Shown here one piece after another: positions 5,847-61,621 of a stretch of 64,000 bases of DNA. The translations under genes and the position numbers were made by a program. Every line of letters starts with the position of its first letter. The first letter of the stretch is position 1. Below the pieces are notes generated by a model, which worked only from the letters and a program-made list of their open reading frames with translations, was not told the origin of the DNA and made no database searches. Origin of the DNA: Phycisphaerae bacterium (GTDB lineage: Bacteria > Planctomycetota > Phycisphaerae > SM23-33); the NCBI GenBank assembly GCA_016782885.1, contig JADHXQ010000003.1, positions 18,316 through 82,315 of the forward strand, given 5' to 3'.

Positions 5847-7424
5847 ATGAAAACTATCGGTATGGCCGCCCTCGTTATCGCCGGTCTGCTCAGTAGTGTC
5901 GCATTGGCCGGAGACTGGCCCGATTGGGGTGGCGGACCGAATCGGAACATGGCCTCGGAGGAAAAGAACATCCCCATGTCGTTCGGGCCGGGCAAACCCA
6001 AAGGCGACAGCCGCCAGATCGACATGTCCACAACTCACAACGTCAAATGGACACTCGTACTCGGCAGCCAGACGTATGGTAACCCGGTGATCTCGGGCGG
6101 AAAAATCATCGTGGGCACAAATGACGGAATGCTCAAGGACGACCGCTTCAAGCGGACCAGGGGCGGGCTGGTGATCTGCTGCGACGCCGAAACGGGCAAG
6201 ATTCTCTGGCAGCTTGTCGTTCCGCGATTCAGAACCAACGACAGAAAGTTCAACTACGACGACCTGAATCTCGGCATCTGCAACTCCGCGGCGATCGAAG
6301 GCGACAGGGCGTATATGGTGTCAAACCGCGGCGACGTGCTCTGCCTGGACATGAACGGACAGGCCGACGGAAACGACGGGGCGTTCAAGGACGAAGGGAA
6401 GTACATGGTCGACGTGGGCAAGAAGCCCGCAAAGATAAACAAGTTCGACGCCGACATCATCTGGCGGTATAACATGATAACCGAACTGCCCATGAACCCG
6501 CAGGACGCTTCGAGCTGCGCGGTGCTCGTGGATGGGGATTTTGTCTACGCGGGCACTTCAAACGGCGTCGACCGCGGACACGTCAAATGCAAATACCCCG
6601 ACGCGCCGAGCGTGATCGTACTGGACAAGAAGACCGGAAGGCTGTTGGCTAAAGACGATGAGAAGACCAGCAGGAACATACTGCACGGACAGTGGTCGTC
6701 ACCGTCGATGGTTACCGTTGGCGGAAAGAAACTGCTCCTCTACGGCTGCGGCGACGGCGTGCTCCATGCGTTCGAGGCCCTGACCAAAACGCCACAGGAC
6801 GGAAAGGTACTCACGCTCAAGGTCGCGTGGAAATACGACTGCAGCCCCAAGGAATACCGGTTCGACACCAAGGGCAAGAAGCGCAAATACGAAAAGAGAC
6901 ACGCCAGCTACAAGAGCGGAAAACGCGGTGGAGGACCATCCGAAATCATCGCCACGCCCAATGTCTATAAGGGGCGAATCTACGTGGCCATCGGGCAGGA
7001 CTCACGCCATGGAATGGGCGACGGGGCGCTGTCGTGCGTCGATGCGGCCACCGGAAAAAGAGTCTGGATATCGAAACTGGTCGACCGGACAATGTCGACC
7101 TGTTCGATCCTGGATTCTCTGCTCTACGTGTCCGACTACACGGGCAACCTGCACTGCTTCGATCCGGACACCGGAAAACGCCATTGGGTCCACGAGACCA
7201 AGTCGCCGCTGTGGAGTTCGACATTCGCGGTTGACGGAAAGGTCTTCCTGGGCACGGAGAACAGTGAACTGTGGGTGCTCAAGGCCGGTAAGGAAAAGAA
7301 AGTACTCAACAAGATACGCCTTCTGGAGAAGATGGCCAACACTCCGACCGTCGCAAACGGCGTGCTGTATATCGCCACGGGACGATACCTCTACGCCATA
7401 GCCTCCGACGACAGGAGCAAATAG
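5847..7424 (+). CDS. PQQ-like repeat beta-propeller protein (BamB/YncE-like), secreted; paralog A of a tandem triplication
   Basis: Signal peptide followed by a DWPxWGG motif, then repeated beta-strand/turn motifs typical of PQQ-enzyme-repeat propellers. About 75% identical to the next two genes. GGAGA ribosome-binding site upstream. Confidence 0.7.
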   Translation: MKTIGMAALVIAGLLSSVALAGDWPDWGGGPNRNMASEEKNIPMSFGPGKPKGDSRQIDMSTTHNVKWTLVLGSQTYGNPVISGGKIIVGTNDGMLKDDRFKRTRGGLVICCDAETGKILWQLVVPRFRTNDRKFNYDDLNLGICNSAAIEGDRAYMVSNRGDVLCLDMNGQADGNDGAFKDEGKYMVDVGKKPAKINKFDADIIWRYNMITELPMNPQDASSCAVLVDGDFVYAGTSNGVDRGHVKCKYPDAPSVIVLDKKTGRLLAKDDEKTSRNILHGQWSSPSMVTVGGKKLLLYGCGDGVLHAFEALTKTPQDGKVLTLKVAWKYDCSPKEYRFDTKGKKRKYEKRHASYKSGKRGGGPSEIIATPNVYKGRIYVAIGQDSRHGMGDGALSCVDAATGKRVWISKLVDRTMSTCSILDSLLYVSDYTGNLHCFDPDTGKRHWVHETKSPLWSSTFAVDGKVFLGTENSELWVLKAGKEKKVLNKIRLLEKMANTPTVANGVLYIATGRYLYAIASDDRSK

Positions 7425-55747: not shown

Positions 55748-58700
55748 ATGAATCGCCGATTGACGCTTATGCTGCTTGCGTTTTCACTCATCGTGTCCTT
55801 TATCGCCGCCGCCGGCGCCGCGGACCCCGCCTGGTACGCAAAAAAGAGCACCTGGCGCGAAACACTGAAGACTTCGCTATACAACAAAACCAAGGGTATC
55901 GCGGCGGAAAAGGCTCGCCCCGTCGCCAGACCGTCCAAAGGCTTCAAACCTTTCGTGACGAAGGCGCTCAAGGGCGGAATGGCGCCGCTGAAAATCTCCG
56001 TACCGATCACCGGCGAGAAGGACCTGATCCTCGTGGCGGCCGACGGCGGCGACGGGATCGGTTGCGATCACTCGACATGGGCCGACGCGAAGCTGATCGG
56101 CGCGGCGGGCAAGGTCACATGGCTCGATACGATCAGACCGAAGGCGGTCAGTGTCGGATACGGTAATCTCCAAATCAAATCCAACGAAAAACGCCGGCCC
56201 GCGATCATCGGAAACCAGAAGTTTCCCCGCTACATCTGGGCTCACGCGGTCAGCACGCTTCACTACGAAATCGGTGGAAAATACGTACGGTTCGAGGCGA
56301 GCGTCGGCGTGGACCGGCGAGAACATCGCAACGCGGGCAGCGTCTCCTTCATCGTAACCAACGACCGCAAATCCATACCCAGGGGCGCCAAATCATCTTC
56401 CATGGCGCTGACCAGTCCGCTCTGGGGCGCACTGCTGCGGGACTTCCCCGAAAGTCAGGGGCTCATGGTCCTCAACGATTGGCTCAGGCAGGACAGCCTC
56501 GGGATCGAAGACGAAGCGGGCAAGTTCAAGGAACCCGCGGCAGCCGCACTGAAAGCGGCGGCCGATACGCTGGCGTACGTAAACAAGTCGGGCCCGCAGA
56601 CCAAACTCGCCGCAGAACTTGCGTCCCTGACCAGGAAGCACACAGCCGCAACCGATGACCAGTGGCGCGACATCTACATGGTGACCAAACAACTCCGGCG
56701 CCGCATTATCCTTTCGCATCCGGCGCTCGACTTCGAAAGAATCCTCATCAACCGCAATCCGCCCACGCTGTACTCTCACAATGGCGACCAGCATCTAGGG
56801 CGTCACAGCCGCGTCGGAAAAGGACTGGCGATCCTGACCGGCTGGAAGACCGACAACCTCAAAGCCACGCCCATGCTGAAGGCGGGCAAGCTGCCCGACG
56901 GCGCCGTTCGCAACCCCGACCTCCACTACGACGCCGAGAAGGTCGCCTTCGCCTTCTGCGACCACACGCGCCAGGGCCAGAAGCGATACTTCCTCTACGA
57001 AGCCGCCATCGACGGCTCGTGGGTGCGCCAATTGACGGGCACGAAACGCGACAAGTTCAACACGTGGGACAATCGCGCCACGGTGATCATCGAGGACAAC
57101 GACCCGTGCTACCTTCCCGATGACAATCTCGTCTTCATCACCACGCGCTGCCAGTCGTTCGGGCGCTGCCACGGCGGGCGCTACAACCCCGCATGGACCC
57201 TTCACCGCTGCGACAAGAACGGCGACAACATCAAGCAGTTGTCGTTCGGCAATGAAAACGAGTACGAACCGTCAGTGCTCAATGACGGGCGGATCGTCTT
57301 CACGCGATGGGAATACACCAACCGCCACGAGATGTTCTTCCACATGCTCTGGGCCTGCCGCCCCGACGGAACGAACGTAACGCACTTCTTCGGAAACGAC
57401 ATGCTCCACCCGATGATGATGGTCGAAGCGACCGCCATTCCCGGAACGCATCGCGTGATGACCACCGCCCAGGGACACCACAGCTACAACACCGGAACGA
57501 CCATCGTTCTCGACACCAACATCGGCGAAAACACCGAAAAGGCGATCACCCACCTGACGCCCGAGACGCCGTATTCCGAATCGCCGGGCGGCGGGTGGCC
57601 CAAGCCGCATTACTCTCACCCCCACCCGCTGACCGAGGACCTGTTCCTGGCCTCGAGGGCAAACCACAACGTGCATCCGCAGGGCAGGACGCCCCCGCCG
57701 GCCGACCGGGCGATATACCTGGTCGACCCGGCAGGCGGGCGCGAGCTGATCTACGAAGACCCGGACGTCGCGTCGTTTTCGCCGATCCCCATCCGCAAAC
57801 GCAAGCGCCCGCCGGTCATGCCGACAATGGTCCGACCCGACGCGCCGGACTACGGAACGGTATTCCTCCAGAACGCCTATCTCACCCGAAAGGAAAACGA
57901 TCCCAAAGGCATCATCAAGCCGGGCATGATCAAGGCTATCCGCGTCATCGCCATCGGCGTCCAACCACGGGCCGGACGTTCCGCATTACATATGCGCGTT
58001 CACGTTGAAATCCCCAGGAAAGTTATCGGAACCGTTCCGGTAGACGCAACCGGTTCGGCGTACTTCAAAGTACCGGCGAGAACGTCCCTGCAGGTCCAGA
58101 CGCTCGACGAAAACGGTATGGCCATCCTCACCGAAAAAAGCCTCTTCTACCTCCAGCCCGGAGAGAACAGGAGCTGCGTCGGATGCCACGAACCCGAAGG
58201 GTCCAGCCCGATCGTAAGCGCGATGGCCAAGCTCCGGCGACTCAGGCCAGTGGACCTCAAACCGGCCGCTGGTCCTGCTTACGAAGGCGGATTGAGCTTC
58301 ATGCGAACCGTCCAACCGGTGCTCGACCGCTACTGCATCAAGTGCCACGGTCTGGGCGAAGGCAAGGACCCCAAGAGCGAGAAGATCAAGCTGATCCACG
58401 ACGGGCAACTGACCTGGCCGCAATCGTACAAGGAACTGTTCGCACGCGGAGACCACCGCGTCGGCGACAAGGGATACATGCACGGGAACAAGAACCACCA
58501 GCCCGAAGACAGGAACATCAGCAAACCGCGCCGATTCTTCGCCTTCAGCAACAAGGTCGCACACATGCTCGTGAAGAATCACGGCAAGTGCAATATGGAC
58601 AGAGACAGCTACATGCGGATCATCGAGTGGATGGACGTCAACGCGCAGTGCTACGGCGACCTGTTCCCCTACAAACTCGAAGAACGCAGAATCGACGCCA

Positions 58701-59053
58701 AGGCCATGACCGCACTGCGGGCATACGTCAAGGAACTCTTCGGCGCCAAGATTGCCGCCCAGCCCGACCGCGCACTGATCAATACAGTCCAGATCGACGA
58801 ATCTCGCATCCTTATGGCGCCCCTGGCGACCCAGACCGGCGGATGGGGCCAGATCCCCGGATACGCCTCGAAAGACGATCCGAAGTACAAGAAGATGGCC
58901 GATCTCGTCGACAAGTGCATCGTAAGGAATCGTAACGAGAACACGCGAGGATGGCAGCCCACACTCGACGCCGGCGGTGGAGAGAAATGGGTGATGGAAG
59001 ATCGGGCGAAACTCATCAGCGGCCTGAAGGGCGCGACGCCCAAGTCGAAATAG
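55748..59053 (+). CDS. family member 6: permuted/partial NPCBM-like N-terminal region plus the beta-propeller/di-CxxCH core
   Basis: Signal peptide. GDGIGCDHSTWADAKL (NPCBM C-half motif) lies upstream of IWAHAVS...GSVSFIV (NPCBM N-half motifs). Core motifs CVGCHEPE and YCIKCHGLGEGKDPKSEKIKL. Confidence 0.75.
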   Translation: MNRRLTLMLLAFSLIVSFIAAAGAADPAWYAKKSTWRETLKTSLYNKTKGIAAEKARPVARPSKGFKPFVTKALKGGMAPLKISVPITGEKDLILVAADGGDGIGCDHSTWADAKLIGAAGKVTWLDTIRPKAVSVGYGNLQIKSNEKRRPAIIGNQKFPRYIWAHAVSTLHYEIGGKYVRFEASVGVDRREHRNAGSVSFIVTNDRKSIPRGAKSSSMALTSPLWGALLRDFPESQGLMVLNDWLRQDSLGIEDEAGKFKEPAAAALKAAADTLAYVNKSGPQTKLAAELASLTRKHTAATDDQWRDIYMVTKQLRRRIILSHPALDFERILINRNPPTLYSHNGDQHLGRHSRVGKGLAILTGWKTDNLKATPMLKAGKLPDGAVRNPDLHYDAEKVAFAFCDHTRQGQKRYFLYEAAIDGSWVRQLTGTKRDKFNTWDNRATVIIEDNDPCYLPDDNLVFITTRCQSFGRCHGGRYNPAWTLHRCDKNGDNIKQLSFGNENEYEPSVLNDGRIVFTRWEYTNRHEMFFHMLWACRPDGTNVTHFFGNDMLHPMMMVEATAIPGTHRVMTTAQGHHSYNTGTTIVLDTNIGENTEKAITHLTPETPYSESPGGGWPKPHYSHPHPLTEDLFLASRANHNVHPQGRTPPPADRAIYLVDPAGGRELIYEDPDVASFSPIPIRKRKRPPVMPTMVRPDAPDYGTVFLQNAYLTRKENDPKGIIKPGMIKAIRVIAIGVQPRAGRSALHMRVHVEIPRKVIGTVPVDATGSAYFKVPARTSLQVQTLDENGMAILTEKSLFYLQPGENRSCVGCHEPEGSSPIVSAMAKLRRLRPVDLKPAAGPAYEGGLSFMRTVQPVLDRYCIKCHGLGEGKDPKSEKIKLIHDGQLTWPQSYKELFARGDHRVGDKGYMHGNKNHQPEDRNISKPRRFFAFSNKVAHMLVKNHGKCNMDRDSYMRIIEWMDVNAQCYGDLFPYKLEERRIDAKAMTALRAYVKELFGAKIAAQPDRALINTVQIDESRILMAPLATQTGGWGQIPGYASKDDPKYKKMADLVDKCIVRNRNENTRGWQPTLDAGGGEKWVMEDRAKLISGLKGATPKSK

Positions 59054-59103
59054 GCGACAGCAGCCAATAAAGAGACGCATCCAACAAGGCCCCGAGGCCC
59101 ATG

Positions 59104-60342
59104 TGGGGTCAGAGCTTCGTTAGTCTTTAAGGTGATAGAAATACAATAGAACTCTTTGTATTAAATGCGGATAGCGGATGCAAAAGATCTTTTAAGGACT
59201 AACGAAGCTCTGACCCCAAGTTTTTCGATTGACGTTGAGATTGGGATTTGTTAGTTTTTCGGGTATGGCTAGACCTCTGAGAATACAGTTTCCTGGCGCC
59301 TTGTATCATGTCATGTCGCGGGGCAATGAGAAGCAACCGATCGTTCTTGACGACATCGACCGGGCCAAACGCGTCGATTGGTTGCGGCGGACGGTGGAGA
59401 TTTACGGGTGGCGGCTTCATGCGTTCGCGCTGATGACGAATCACGATCACCTGTTCGTCGAGACGCCCGAACCGAATCTGTCTGCCGGGATGCAGTATCT
59501 CGGCGGCAGCTACACGAGCTATTTCAATTGGCGCTACAAACGCAGCGGGCATCTGTTTCAAGGCCGCTTCAAGGCCCATCTAGTTCAGACCGAGGGTTAC
59601 TTCCGCGAAGTCAGCCGCTACATCCATCTGAACCCCGTGCGTGCCGGACTCGTCGCCCGCCCGCAAGATTACAACTGGAGCAGCTATCCCGGCTACGCCC
59701 AATCGCGGCGGGCCGTGGCGTGGGTCTGCTACGATCGCGTGTTGTCTGAGTTCGGATGCGATCCGGGCGACGCCAGGCGGGCCTATAACCGCTTCGTTCG
59801 CCACGGAATAAACACCCCGCCGCCTTCGCCGCTAGCCAAACCGGTCAGCGGATTGCTTGTCGGATCCGAAGCGTTTGTGGCGAAAATGCGTGGGATGCTC
59901 CAGAATCGCCCCGACGACGCCTCCCTACCCCAACTGCGCGAAATGCAGTTGCAGTCGCGTCCGGAATTGCAGCGGATAGTCGCCGCAGTCGCCGAGAAAT
60001 TCGGCAGCGACCCAGCCGACTGGCGTGCGGACAAACGAGTCAACGACGCCAGCCGCGCACTAGCGGCGTACCTCGCCAGACGACGCTTCGGATATTCGGG
60101 CAATCAGGTGGCCGAAGCGTTGGGATATCGAAGCGGCAGTTCGGTGTCGAGCGCTGTCGCCCGAATCGATTCAGCAGGTCCAGCACTCAGGAAAACCGCC
60201 GAAAAGATCGAACGAGAGCTTATGGGGTCAGAGCTTGGTTAGTCCTTAAGAAGCTGGCGGCTCGATACAAGTCCTTTGTGTGTAGGCCAATAGAGGATAC
60301 AGACAGACCCTTGAGGACTAACCAAGCTCTGACCCCATAAGC
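59104..60342 (+). mobile_element. IS200/IS605-like (or REP-associated) element consisting of a Y1 HUH transposase gene bracketed by two related long hairpin elements
   Basis: Upstream hairpin: 22-bp perfect stem 59104..59125 / 59197..59218 with a ~71-nt loop. Downstream hairpin: 28-bp perfect stem 60217..60245 / 60315..60342 with a ~69-nt loop. The two stems are nearly identical in sequence and lie in the same orientation. Confidence 0.65.
59265..60242 (+). CDS. tnpA: IS200-like Y1 (HUH) transposase with a C-terminal DnaA-C-like helix-turn-helix domain
   Basis: HVMSRGN, the HuH motif NHDHLFVE and the catalytic-Tyr region YIHLNPVRAGL. The C-terminal ALAAYLARRRFGYSGNQVAEALGYRSGSSVSSAVARI resembles the DnaA C-terminal HTH. 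The start is placed at the ATG at 59265. Confidence 0.75.
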   Translation: MARPLRIQFPGALYHVMSRGNEKQPIVLDDIDRAKRVDWLRRTVEIYGWRLHAFALMTNHDHLFVETPEPNLSAGMQYLGGSYTSYFNWRYKRSGHLFQGRFKAHLVQTEGYFREVSRYIHLNPVRAGLVARPQDYNWSSYPGYAQSRRAVAWVCYDRVLSEFGCDPGDARRAYNRFVRHGINTPPPSPLAKPVSGLLVGSEAFVAKMRGMLQNRPDDASLPQLREMQLQSRPELQRIVAAVAEKFGSDPADWRADKRVNDASRALAAYLARRRFGYSGNQVAEALGYRSGSSVSSAVARIDSAGPALRKTAEKIERELMGSELG

Positions 60343-60346
60343 TCAT

Positions 60347-61621
60347 CTACCGACTGCGGCGCAATTGACCGAACGCGATTCCGATCAGACCGCAGAGGCC
60401 CCCGCCTACCCCGGCGATCAGGTAGATCAGCGGAGGACCCCACGATGCACCCAGCGACTCGCTGACCAGGAATGCGTTGCCCAAAAGCCCCGTCGCCAGC
60501 AGCGAAAGCGACGTGCATCCGACGAACGTCAGGTTGATCAGAGAGAACACGCGCCCGTGCATCGCGTGGGGCACCTTCTCATGGATCAGCGTGGTGCGGC
60601 TGATCTGGATGAGCGGTATCCAGATACCGTGGAACGCGTGCGCACATAACAGCAGCGGGAAACTCCGGATCCAGAAGAACGGGATAAACGTCACGCCGTC
60701 CATCACCATGCCGATCAGGATCAGCCTGCCCTTGGGCCAGCGCCTCCCCCACCTGGCGACGATGACCGAACCGAGCAGCCAACCGGCGCCCAGCACGGCG
60801 TGGAATATCGCGACCTGACGCGCCCCCAGACCGCAGGTCTTGAAAATCAGCAGATTGCTGCCGATGATCGCCGGACCCATGATGAAGAAGTTGTCCACCG
60901 CCGTTATGAACAGCAGCCCGCGAAGCAGGCCCGACCGGCGAGCATAACCGAGCGCCTCCCGCACATCATGCCACGTGCCCATCTTCCGGCGGACGCCCGG
61001 GCCGCCCCTCCCCGCCGCGATGCCCAGCAGAAGCCCGAACGATACCACGAACGTCGCCCCGTCGACCCAATACAGGTTTACGATACGCGTAATCTCCGGA
61101 CCGATGTCCCCGCGCGCCAAGGCCGCCTTCGTCGAGGCCTCGTTTATCCCCAGCAACAGGGCGACACCAAGCGATCCGACAATCATCGCCATCTGCGCCG
61201 ACATCTGAAACCACGCGTTGACGCGAGTAAGCGATCGCCCCTCAGCCAAAAGCGGAAGCAGCGCGTCGCGGGCCGGATTGAACGCCGTGGACACCGTCGC
61301 CAGACAAAACGCCACGCACCCAACCAGCGGCCAGGACAGATAACCCCACGTCGCCGCAAAAGGAAGCGTAACGACCAGTACCGCCCGAATGATATCGGCC
61401 ACCAGCATCAACCGTTTTTTGCGCACGCGGTCGACCAGCGCGCCGGAAAACGGGCCTATCAGCAGGAACGGAAGGAAGTTCAGGAGCATGACGACCCCCG
61501 TCTTCATGGCCGCATCCTCGCCGCCGATCAACAGGATAAGAAACGGAAGCGTCACCATGAAGAACGCGTCGCCAACCTGGCTGACAAACTGCCCGATCCA
61601 GAGTAATACGAGGTTCTTCAT
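60347..61621 (-). CDS. MFS transporter
   Basis: Twelve hydrophobic segments. MFS signature region GALVDRVRKKRLML. Confidence 0.7.
   Translation of the reverse strand: MKNLVLLWIGQFVSQVGDAFFMVTLPFLILLIGGEDAAMKTGVVMLLNFLPFLLIGPFSGALVDRVRKKRLMLVADIIRAVLVVTLPFAATWGYLSWPLVGCVAFCLATVSTAFNPARDALLPLLAEGRSLTRVNAWFQMSAQMAMIVGSLGVALLLGINEASTKAALARGDIGPEITRIVNLYWVDGATFVVSFGLLLGIAAGRGGPGVRRKMGTWHDVREALGYARRSGLLRGLLFITAVDNFFIMGPAIIGSNLLIFKTCGLGARQVAIFHAVLGAGWLLGSVIVARWGRRWPKGRLILIGMVMDGVTFIPFFWIRSFPLLLCAHAFHGIWIPLIQISRTTLIHEKVPHAMHGRVFSLINLTFVGCTSLSLLATGLLGNAFLVSESLGASWGPPLIYLIAGVGGGLCGLIGIAFGQLRRSR

Follow-up and report, generated by a model that had tools for sequence, protein, structure and literature searches.

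The 64,000-nucleotide (nt) stretch of contig JADHXQ010000003.1 from a Phycisphaerae bacterium, here called the window, contains at 59104-60344 a 1241-bp unit in which a gene for a Y1-HUH tyrosine transposase stands between two long hairpins. This locus is very likely a TIRtron, namely a single-copy TIRYT gene with a dimer of its cognate terminal inverted repeat (TIR) at either end. The TIRYT/TIRtron class is the same as Group 1 of the tyrosine transposases (RAYTs) associated with repetitive extragenic palindromes (REPs) and as subclass 2.1.2 of TnpAY1; it has already been described and is little studied. Judged from sequence comparison, the hairpins are probably mobile, non-autonomous partners of the enzyme, similar to REPINs or miniature inverted-repeat transposable elements (MITEs), and probably moved by it. 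Mobility is argued because hairpins are scattered without the gene, because the unit occurs in unrelated contexts, and because occupancy of one orthologous site varies among relatives. An extended 12-nt foot, dimers at both ends and a four-state orthologous site are useful additions to the known class and define no new category. For annotation, the gene is to be labelled Group 1 RAYT/TIRYT, with TIR dimers on its flanks, and not an IS200 copy.

Structure of the hairpin-gene-hairpin unit

The upstream TIR dimer, a REPIN-like hairpin at 59104-59218, consists of arms at 59104-59130 and 59192-59218 with the foot TGGGGTCAGAGC and an AT-rich spacer (31% GC). The downstream dimer at 60216-60344 has its arms at 60216-60250 and 60310-60344 and the same orientation as the upstream one. 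Between them, the gene at 59265-60242 on the plus strand encodes 325 amino acids (aa), comprising a Y1-HUH core, a linker and a helix-turn-helix (HTH) domain resembling domain IV of DnaA. In an inverted-repeat search, the upstream arms of 27 nt were found 96% complementary and 61 nt apart, with 22 perfect bp from the foot, and the downstream arms of 35 nt were 97% complementary and 59 nt apart, with 31 perfect bp. A first-pass annotation, made from the letters alone, had described a palindrome with nearly the same stem on each side of the gene, and both palindromes were recovered. Its upstream stem length of 22 bp and its loops of some 70 nt also stood, since about 70 nt separate the perfect stems of either hairpin, but its downstream length of 28 bp gives way to 31, with the stem running 7 bp outward past the TGGGG foot.

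All four arms begin TGGGGTCAG. The 21-mer GGGGTCAGAGCTTSGTTAGTC occurs four times in the window, always at a hairpin arm, where 0.01 occurrences are expected by chance. Both hairpins fold with z-scores of about -10 against shuffles on either strand. Single arms fold no better than shuffles (minimum free energy 0 to -2.2 kcal/mol), and the hairpin needs two inverted arms. One stem position differs between the two hairpins (C/G), and a matching change in the partner arm preserves the pair. Furthermore, the two loops can be recognised as homologs when aligned in the same orientation, with an alignment score of 2 against -10.3 +/- 3.8 for shuffled loops, a score equalled or beaten by 4 of 2000 shuffles, while the opposite orientation scores -11. 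This same-orientation homology, together with the compensated stem change, indicates that the two hairpins are direct copies of one element of about 115 nt, with conserved arms and a spacer that has drifted.

The downstream 5' arm codes for the last 8 codons of the gene and its stop. The end of the open reading frame (ORF), ATG GGG TCA GAG CTT GGT TAG, reads MGSELG* inside that arm, as the first-pass annotation had noted. An Rfam match to MIR1511, which appeared on both strands with 41 bits where the gathering score is 100, was dismissed as a long-hairpin artefact. No sigma-70-like promoter was detected in the hairpins or their surroundings.

Dispersal of the hairpins in other genomes

One genome per species was scanned with the pattern TGGGGTCAGAGC-N45-75-GCTCTGACCCCA, a gap that leaves out the window's own spacing of 91 nt. 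At least 119 hairpin-bearing blocks of 8 kb were found in Beta- and Gammaproteobacteria, Acidobacteriota, Planctomycetota and a few other phyla. A tblastn and profile search of all ORFs detected a Y1 ORF in three of these blocks only (L031, L089 and L137), so that 116 of the 119 carry the hairpin without the gene. Multiple copies per genome were seen in a betaproteobacterial metagenome-assembled genome (MAG), CAVTHP01, with at least 12 hairpins, in the MAGs JBGAMF01 and JALYSS01, with at least 8 hairpin-bearing blocks each, and in the Phycisphaerales MAG JABGPF01, with at least 3 hairpins.

Pairing extends beyond the sequence that was searched for. The perfect stems of 144 distinct hairpins have a median length of 21 bp. 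At stem positions 13-21, which the pattern leaves unconstrained, 83-93% of the hairpins have a Watson-Crick pair, and each position shows all four pair types. Inner stems vary from lineage to lineage and keep their pairing. Outside the stems, the left flank tends toward AAW and the right flank toward WTT.

Individual cases link solo hairpins to gene-bearing units. The solo hairpin of L039 has the same arm as, and comes from the same genome as, the pair flanking a 75%-identical gene in L089. In both L012 and L015, an extra solo hairpin lies 1-1.4 kb off the unit (L012 8877-8961; L015 8418-8501). With a further solo hairpin in L223, these relatives provide transposase-free copies of the kind that the first-pass annotation proposed to look for in the full genome, and its suggestion of a REP/BIME-like hairpin family is supported by the large share of matched blocks without a Y1 gene. 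In a Gemmatimonadaceae MAG (L023 7593-7679), a tandem array of the bare 12-mer GCTCTGACCCCA was observed in place of a hairpin.

Genomic contexts of related units

The protein family has more than 7,300 matches, and the nearest lie in MAGs of Phycisphaerae and Pirellulales. The identical protein was found in 10 assemblies, always in the same intact locus and in one locus each. When the neighbouring MFS protein served as the query, a route that does not favour the element, one contig was recovered, from one of the same 10 assemblies and with the same arrangement.

In relatives 75-80% identical, the hairpin-gene-hairpin unit lies in neighbourhoods unrelated to that of the window. The unit of L012 is found between two methyltransferase genes, 1.6 kb from dnaA; that of L015 adjoins a gene for a C25 peptidase, and a transketolase gene is found about 2 kb upstream; and that of the P0006 contig lies between PfkB and DUF5077 genes. 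The arms of the L012 and L015 type keep TGGGGTCAGAGC and differ in their inner part (CTCA[A/T]TAGTCATTAAGG; GCCGTTAGACACTAGG), and their loops are 17-35 nt long.

A second sample was anchored on the protein, with 80 metagenome loci of 35-71% identity fetched through conserved peptides. About 50 of them carry GGGGTCAG/C repeats at the gene ends. In most of the 80, the layout is a plain TIR-gene-TIR, with a repeat 50-100 nt upstream and an inverted copy 10-80 nt downstream; in the window clade (at least 75% identity), a full dimer stands at each gene end. The association reaches an acidobacterium, Ca. Acidoferrum (L031 3646-4590), in which a 34%-identical Y1 ORF of 241 aa lies between two GGGGTCAGAGC hairpins. 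A DnaA_C domain was not detectable in this L031 ORF. Further arms were seen in L031 at 63, 2861 and 2907.

Several side observations concern the behaviour of the repeats. In L019 (1011-1110), a 74%-identical homolog is followed downstream by a tandem of three arms (TTAACGTCTAA[C/A]TGCGCTCTGACCCCATTTGTTCCC), all oriented alike and none with an inverted partner, so arms can multiply as direct repeats too. In L137, a second partial TIRYT-like ORF (1144-1497) lies 1.2 kb upstream of the full gene, and a nested or overlapping hairpin pair (6720-6843) lies 3 kb downstream. The contigs of L010, L016 and L017 end inside the downstream hairpin; these breaks in three assemblies show that short-read assembly is interrupted by the palindromes. 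Metagenome contigs of about 1.2 kb were considered as collapsed copies of an insertion sequence (IS) and rejected, since the contig ends do not match the repeat feet. A genuine dnaA gene lies less than 2 kb from a hairpin at two independent loci (L012 6949-8388; L070 4239-5312), where roughly 0.35 would be expected in about 1.4 Mb of non-redundant DNA. In view of the DnaA-like HTH this proximity is suggestive, but targeting of the origin was not adopted on this ground, two independent loci being statistically too weak.

Four states of one orthologous site

In the window, the unit occupies an interval of 1293 nt (59054-60346) between two convergent genes, an NPCBM/HZS_alpha gene with its stop at 59053 and an MFS gene with its stop at 60347. 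Syntenic relatives were located through the MFS neighbour protein, and they present the site in different states. It is empty in L222 (MFS identity 88%), of the relatives with an empty site the closest one, where 19 nt separate the two stop codons. L223-L225 (81%) hold one perfect 82-nt palindrome, a solo hairpin, in 169 nt. In L219 (85%), the 333 nt contain a decayed GGGTCAGTAGC palindrome inside another palindrome with the foot GGGGCAGAGCC, and the window (100%) has the full hairpin-gene-hairpin unit. The gene unit and solo hairpins thus come and go at one orthologous site. The first-pass annotation had proposed comparing this insertion site with relatives, and had allowed for a domesticated, non-mobile gene if the hairpin sequence occurred nowhere else and the locus were intact with identical flanks in all of them; in fact, the site varies among them.

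The arm of the L223 palindrome is that of the hairpins flanking the L015 gene, and both come from the same three samples. In L219 (7303-7488), the outer arms of 35 nt are 89% complementary, with the foot lacking its T (GGGGCAGAGCC), and surround the decayed 58-nt GGGTCAGTAGC palindrome. This nesting suggests that one hairpin was inserted into the loop of another. The 19-nt spacer of L222 has no similarity to the window flanks, and for this reason the insertion boundaries cannot be placed to the nucleotide.

At about 7262-7390 of L223 (minus strand view), an 11-nt direct repeat, CTTGCGGCTTA, was seen to bracket 22 nt, the 82-nt palindrome and 2 nt; the first of its copies forms the 3' half of a stem that resembles a terminator. 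The repeat could be the footprint of an insertion into a terminator, or a coincidence. Next to the window unit, the neighbour gene (55748-59053) encodes a protein of 1101 aa with NPCBM and hydrazine-synthase-alpha-middle (HZS_alpha) domains. Another HZS_alpha-domain gene was noticed near the L015 element (L015 20150-20936), and these proteins look like a paralogous family of secreted proteins in these Phycisphaerae.

Transposase core and DnaA-like domain

The ORF starts at 59265 with a conserved N-terminus, MARPLRIQF. Its Y1-HUH core (aa 1-140) carries NHDH at 59-62, FQ at 98-99, SRYIHLNP with Y119, and SS at 139-140. The Pfam family Y1_Tnp is matched with 39 bits (cut-off 23). In an alignment of 20 homologs of 60-100% identity, 88 columns are invariant, including H60, H62 and Y119, and the motifs read NH[D/E]HLF, HLFQGRF, SRYIHLNP and WSSY. 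The Y1 transposase with HuH and tyrosine motifs reported by the first-pass annotation is therefore well founded. The HUH motif itself, N-H-D-H at window 59439-59450, is NH[D/E]H throughout the clade. Other profiles are matched less strongly: NCBIfam REP_Tyr_transpos scores 70.5 bits, under its equivalog cut-off of 80, and a sequence search of the PDB gave a marginal match only, to TnpAREP (4ER8; E = 0.055), around the Tyr motif.

A linker separates the core from the DnaA domain-IV-like HTH at about aa 230-320. The Bac_DnaA_C profile is matched with 28.8 bits, under its cut-off of 31.5, and with 35.9 bits in the 75%-identical L089 homolog. An AlphaFold model was built from 20 close homologs, and its C-terminal domain alone was used, where residues of about 230-322 are confident (pLDDT 80-87 over the C-terminal ~90 residues). 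This domain superposes on domain IV of E. coli DnaA bound to a DnaA box (1J1V) with a TM score of 0.83 and an rmsd of 1.7 A over 92 columns, and on the M. tuberculosis DnaA DNA-binding domain (3PVP) with a TM score of 0.75. By BLASTP, the C-terminal region is 39% identical over 70 aa to domain IV of the genuine DnaA of a related Phycisphaerae contig. Based on the fold match and this similarity to a real DnaA, the DnaA-type domain is confirmed despite the sub-cut-off Pfam score, and with it the extra C-terminal HTH of the first-pass annotation. In place of the DnaA signature GGRDHTTV stands GYRS(G/H)(S/G)(S/G)V, a replacement that fits a changed DNA specificity.

Assignment to the TIRYT class

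RAYT-like genes between long TIRs were named TIRYTs, and the whole arrangement the TIRtron, by Di Nocera, De Gregorio and Rocco in 2013 (PMC3733652). They reported the common TIR motif GGGGWSAS, cases in which the 3' TIR overlaps the gene ("3'ov"), moderately abundant TIR families occurring as singles, dimers or groups, and hosts including R. baltica, S. maltophilia and Acidobacteria (PMC3733652). Quentin, Siguier, Chandler and Fichant (2018) equated TIRYTs with subclass 2.1, or Bertels Group 1, and described in subgroup 2.1.2 a C-terminal HTH tail of the Bac_DnaA_C, HTH_23 or HTH_28 type (PMC6006769). The motifs listed for subclass 2.1 in their Table 1 are NHVH or NH[YF]H, W[EQ] or FQ, YIELNP or Y[IV]HLNP, and SS (PMC6006769). 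According to Bertels, Gallie and Rainey (2017), Group 1 is the largest and most widespread RAYT group; it is slightly IS-like, being among the two most IS-like groups, with 6% duplicates and 1.2% of members on plasmids, and its flanking 16-mers number about 12 per replicon (PMC5581495). No further papers mentioning TIRYTs were found in the literature searched.

The window locus fits this description in all tested features but one, the middle residue of the HUH motif. FQ (98-99), YIHLNP (119-124) and SS (139-140) are present, and the HuH motif NHDH differs from the listed NHVH/NH[YF]H. The GGGGTCAG start of the window repeats agrees with GGGGWSAS and is extended to the 12-nt TGGGGTCAGAGC, and the 3' repeat overlaps the gene end as in the 3'ov cases. 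A repeat elsewhere in the genome, reported for some members of the class, is seen in the relatives L039/L089 and L223/L015 and at L012 8877-8961. The hairpins had been called atypical for IS200/IS605 elements in the first-pass annotation. They are dimers of the TIRs of this class and not odd subterminal hairpins.

Proposed mechanism and its alternatives

A mechanism is proposed in which the two inverted arms would pair on single-stranded or extruded DNA, and the HTH domain would read the conserved duplex foot, perhaps also a TTAG(T/A)C box lying 5 bp inward of it. The HUH/Tyr119 centre would nick a single strand just outside the foot, at flanks that tend to AAW before TGGGG and to WTT after CCCCA. 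Hairpins would then be excised or copied and reinserted in trans, mainly into gene-poor spacers such as those between convergent genes, while moves of the gene itself would be rare and would take the flanking hairpins along. Cleavage, the role of the HTH and mobilisation in trans are argued by analogy with the Y1-HUH chemistry of IS608, ISDra2 and TnpAREP. A wider reading falls a little short of probable: Group 1 RAYTs would not be "REP-less" but would drive pan-bacterial REPIN-like hairpins with a universal 12-nt foot TGGGGTCAGAGC, often with AAW/WTT, and free, co-varying inner stems; a captured DnaA-IV HTH would have been retargeted to the foot, and the four site states would be snapshots of a life cycle. 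If this is true, the foot-reading HTH gives a Y1-HUH enzyme a double-strand DNA address.

Several points weigh against mobility driven by this enzyme. The locus is invariant across the 10 assemblies, with no sign of ongoing activity. The arm TGGGGTCAGAGCTTSGTTAGTC does not recur in the other 63 kb of the window, and the 21-mer arm has no exact match in genome_contigs or metagenome_contigs, collections without the source genome. The N-terminal domain was modelled poorly (pLDDT <50). HUH enzymes normally carry a hydrophobic middle residue in the HUH motif, and with the acidic Asp/Glu found here catalysis could be altered or lost. REP-like sequences near subclass 2.1 genes were reported as not found (PMC6006769), and no biochemical test of any TIRYT was found in the literature searched.

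The full dimer at each end in the window clade, with the inner feet facing the gene, is not a simple TIR pair, and this bears on the alternative that the 1241-bp unit is itself an autonomous IS, with the outermost arms as its TIRs, the solo hairpins as MITE derivatives and the gene not domesticated. Such an IS would suit the IS-typical TIR-gene-TIR layout of more distant relatives, the IS-like character of Group 1 (PMC5581495), the unrelated contexts of the unit and the site left empty in one relative. It is unlikely all the same, since each assembly with the identical protein has one locus only, the GC content of the gene (60.1%) is host-like (59.2%), and hairpins far outnumber genes in the scan. 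On plasmids the family is rare as well (28 matching records among 72,556, none of which reaches 60% identity), and viral contigs lack the hairpin pattern.

Less probable still is the view that the hairpins are structural or regulatory elements of the host, such as terminators, mRNA stabilisers or nucleoid-protein sites, beside a decayed, inactive transposase relic whose protein does not move them. Secondary roles of this kind are held by classical REPs, and the position of both hairpins at gene ends between convergent genes, the atypical middle residue (D/E) of the HUH motif and the invariance of the locus across assemblies agree with it. Against these stand a 12-nt foot that stays the same from phylum to phylum and accompanies one protein family even where identity falls to 34%, an intact and clearly constrained protein with its 88 invariant columns, and presence or absence that varies at one orthologous site. 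In addition, the hairpins and their surroundings show no T-tract signature of a terminator, and the symmetry of the palindrome on both strands speaks for an element recognised as DNA.

To our knowledge, TIRYT/Group 1 has never been studied experimentally. The window locus and its relatives provide a clean definition of the substrate, with an invariant 12-nt foot, a free but paired stem and a spacer of variable length, and the natural series at one site (empty, solo hairpin, relics and full unit) documents turnover. Two questions thereby become testable now, namely how a Y1-HUH enzyme uses an added domain for binding double-strand DNA, and whether there are REPIN-like "replicators" beyond the classical REPs with their GTAG head.

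Comparison with known systems

Elements of the IS200/IS605 family are present in multiple copies and often include tnpB; their ends are asymmetric, with short imperfect hairpins in subterminal position, and lack TIRs, and their transposase has about 150 aa with a Y---Q motif. The window unit shows none of these traits. The window unit shares with IS608 and ISDra2 the Y1-HUH core (Pfam Y1_Tnp) and presumably a hairpin-guided chemistry on single-stranded DNA. It differs from them by a protein of 325 aa with YIHLNP, by symmetric palindromic ends and by one locus per assembly.

The REPIN-RAYT systems of Groups 2 and 3, such as E. coli TnpAREP (4ER8) and that of P. fluorescens SBW25 (PMC3116915), are closer. 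In common with them, a single-copy gene lies between cognate repeats, two inverted repeats and a spacer form a hairpin of about 100 nt as the mobile unit, copies are dispersed and extragenic, and the Y motif is of the YIxxNP type. Unlike them, the window foot TGGGGTCAGAGC lacks the GTAG/GTRG head, and a single arm is not itself palindromic, whereas a classical REP is an imperfect palindrome of 20-40 nt. The window protein also has the extra DnaA-IV HTH, with REP_Tyr_transpos below cut-off.

The closest likeness is to TIRYT/Group 1. Shared features are a RAYT-like Y1 protein that exceeds classical RAYTs in length and has a C-terminal HTH of the Bac_DnaA_C type, the FQ, Y[IV]HLNP and SS motifs, inverted repeats starting with GGGGWSAS, a 3' repeat overlapping the gene end, and repeats that in some cases have spread through the genome, singly, as dimers or in groups; the named hosts include Planctomycetes (R. 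baltica), Acidobacteria and Stenotrophomonas. The window locus departs from the class as described in its complete dimer per end instead of one TIR, in its HUH motif NH[D/E]H instead of NHVH or NH[YF]H, and in a conserved motif of 12 nt, TGGGGTCAGAGC, that is common to solo hairpins in several phyla.

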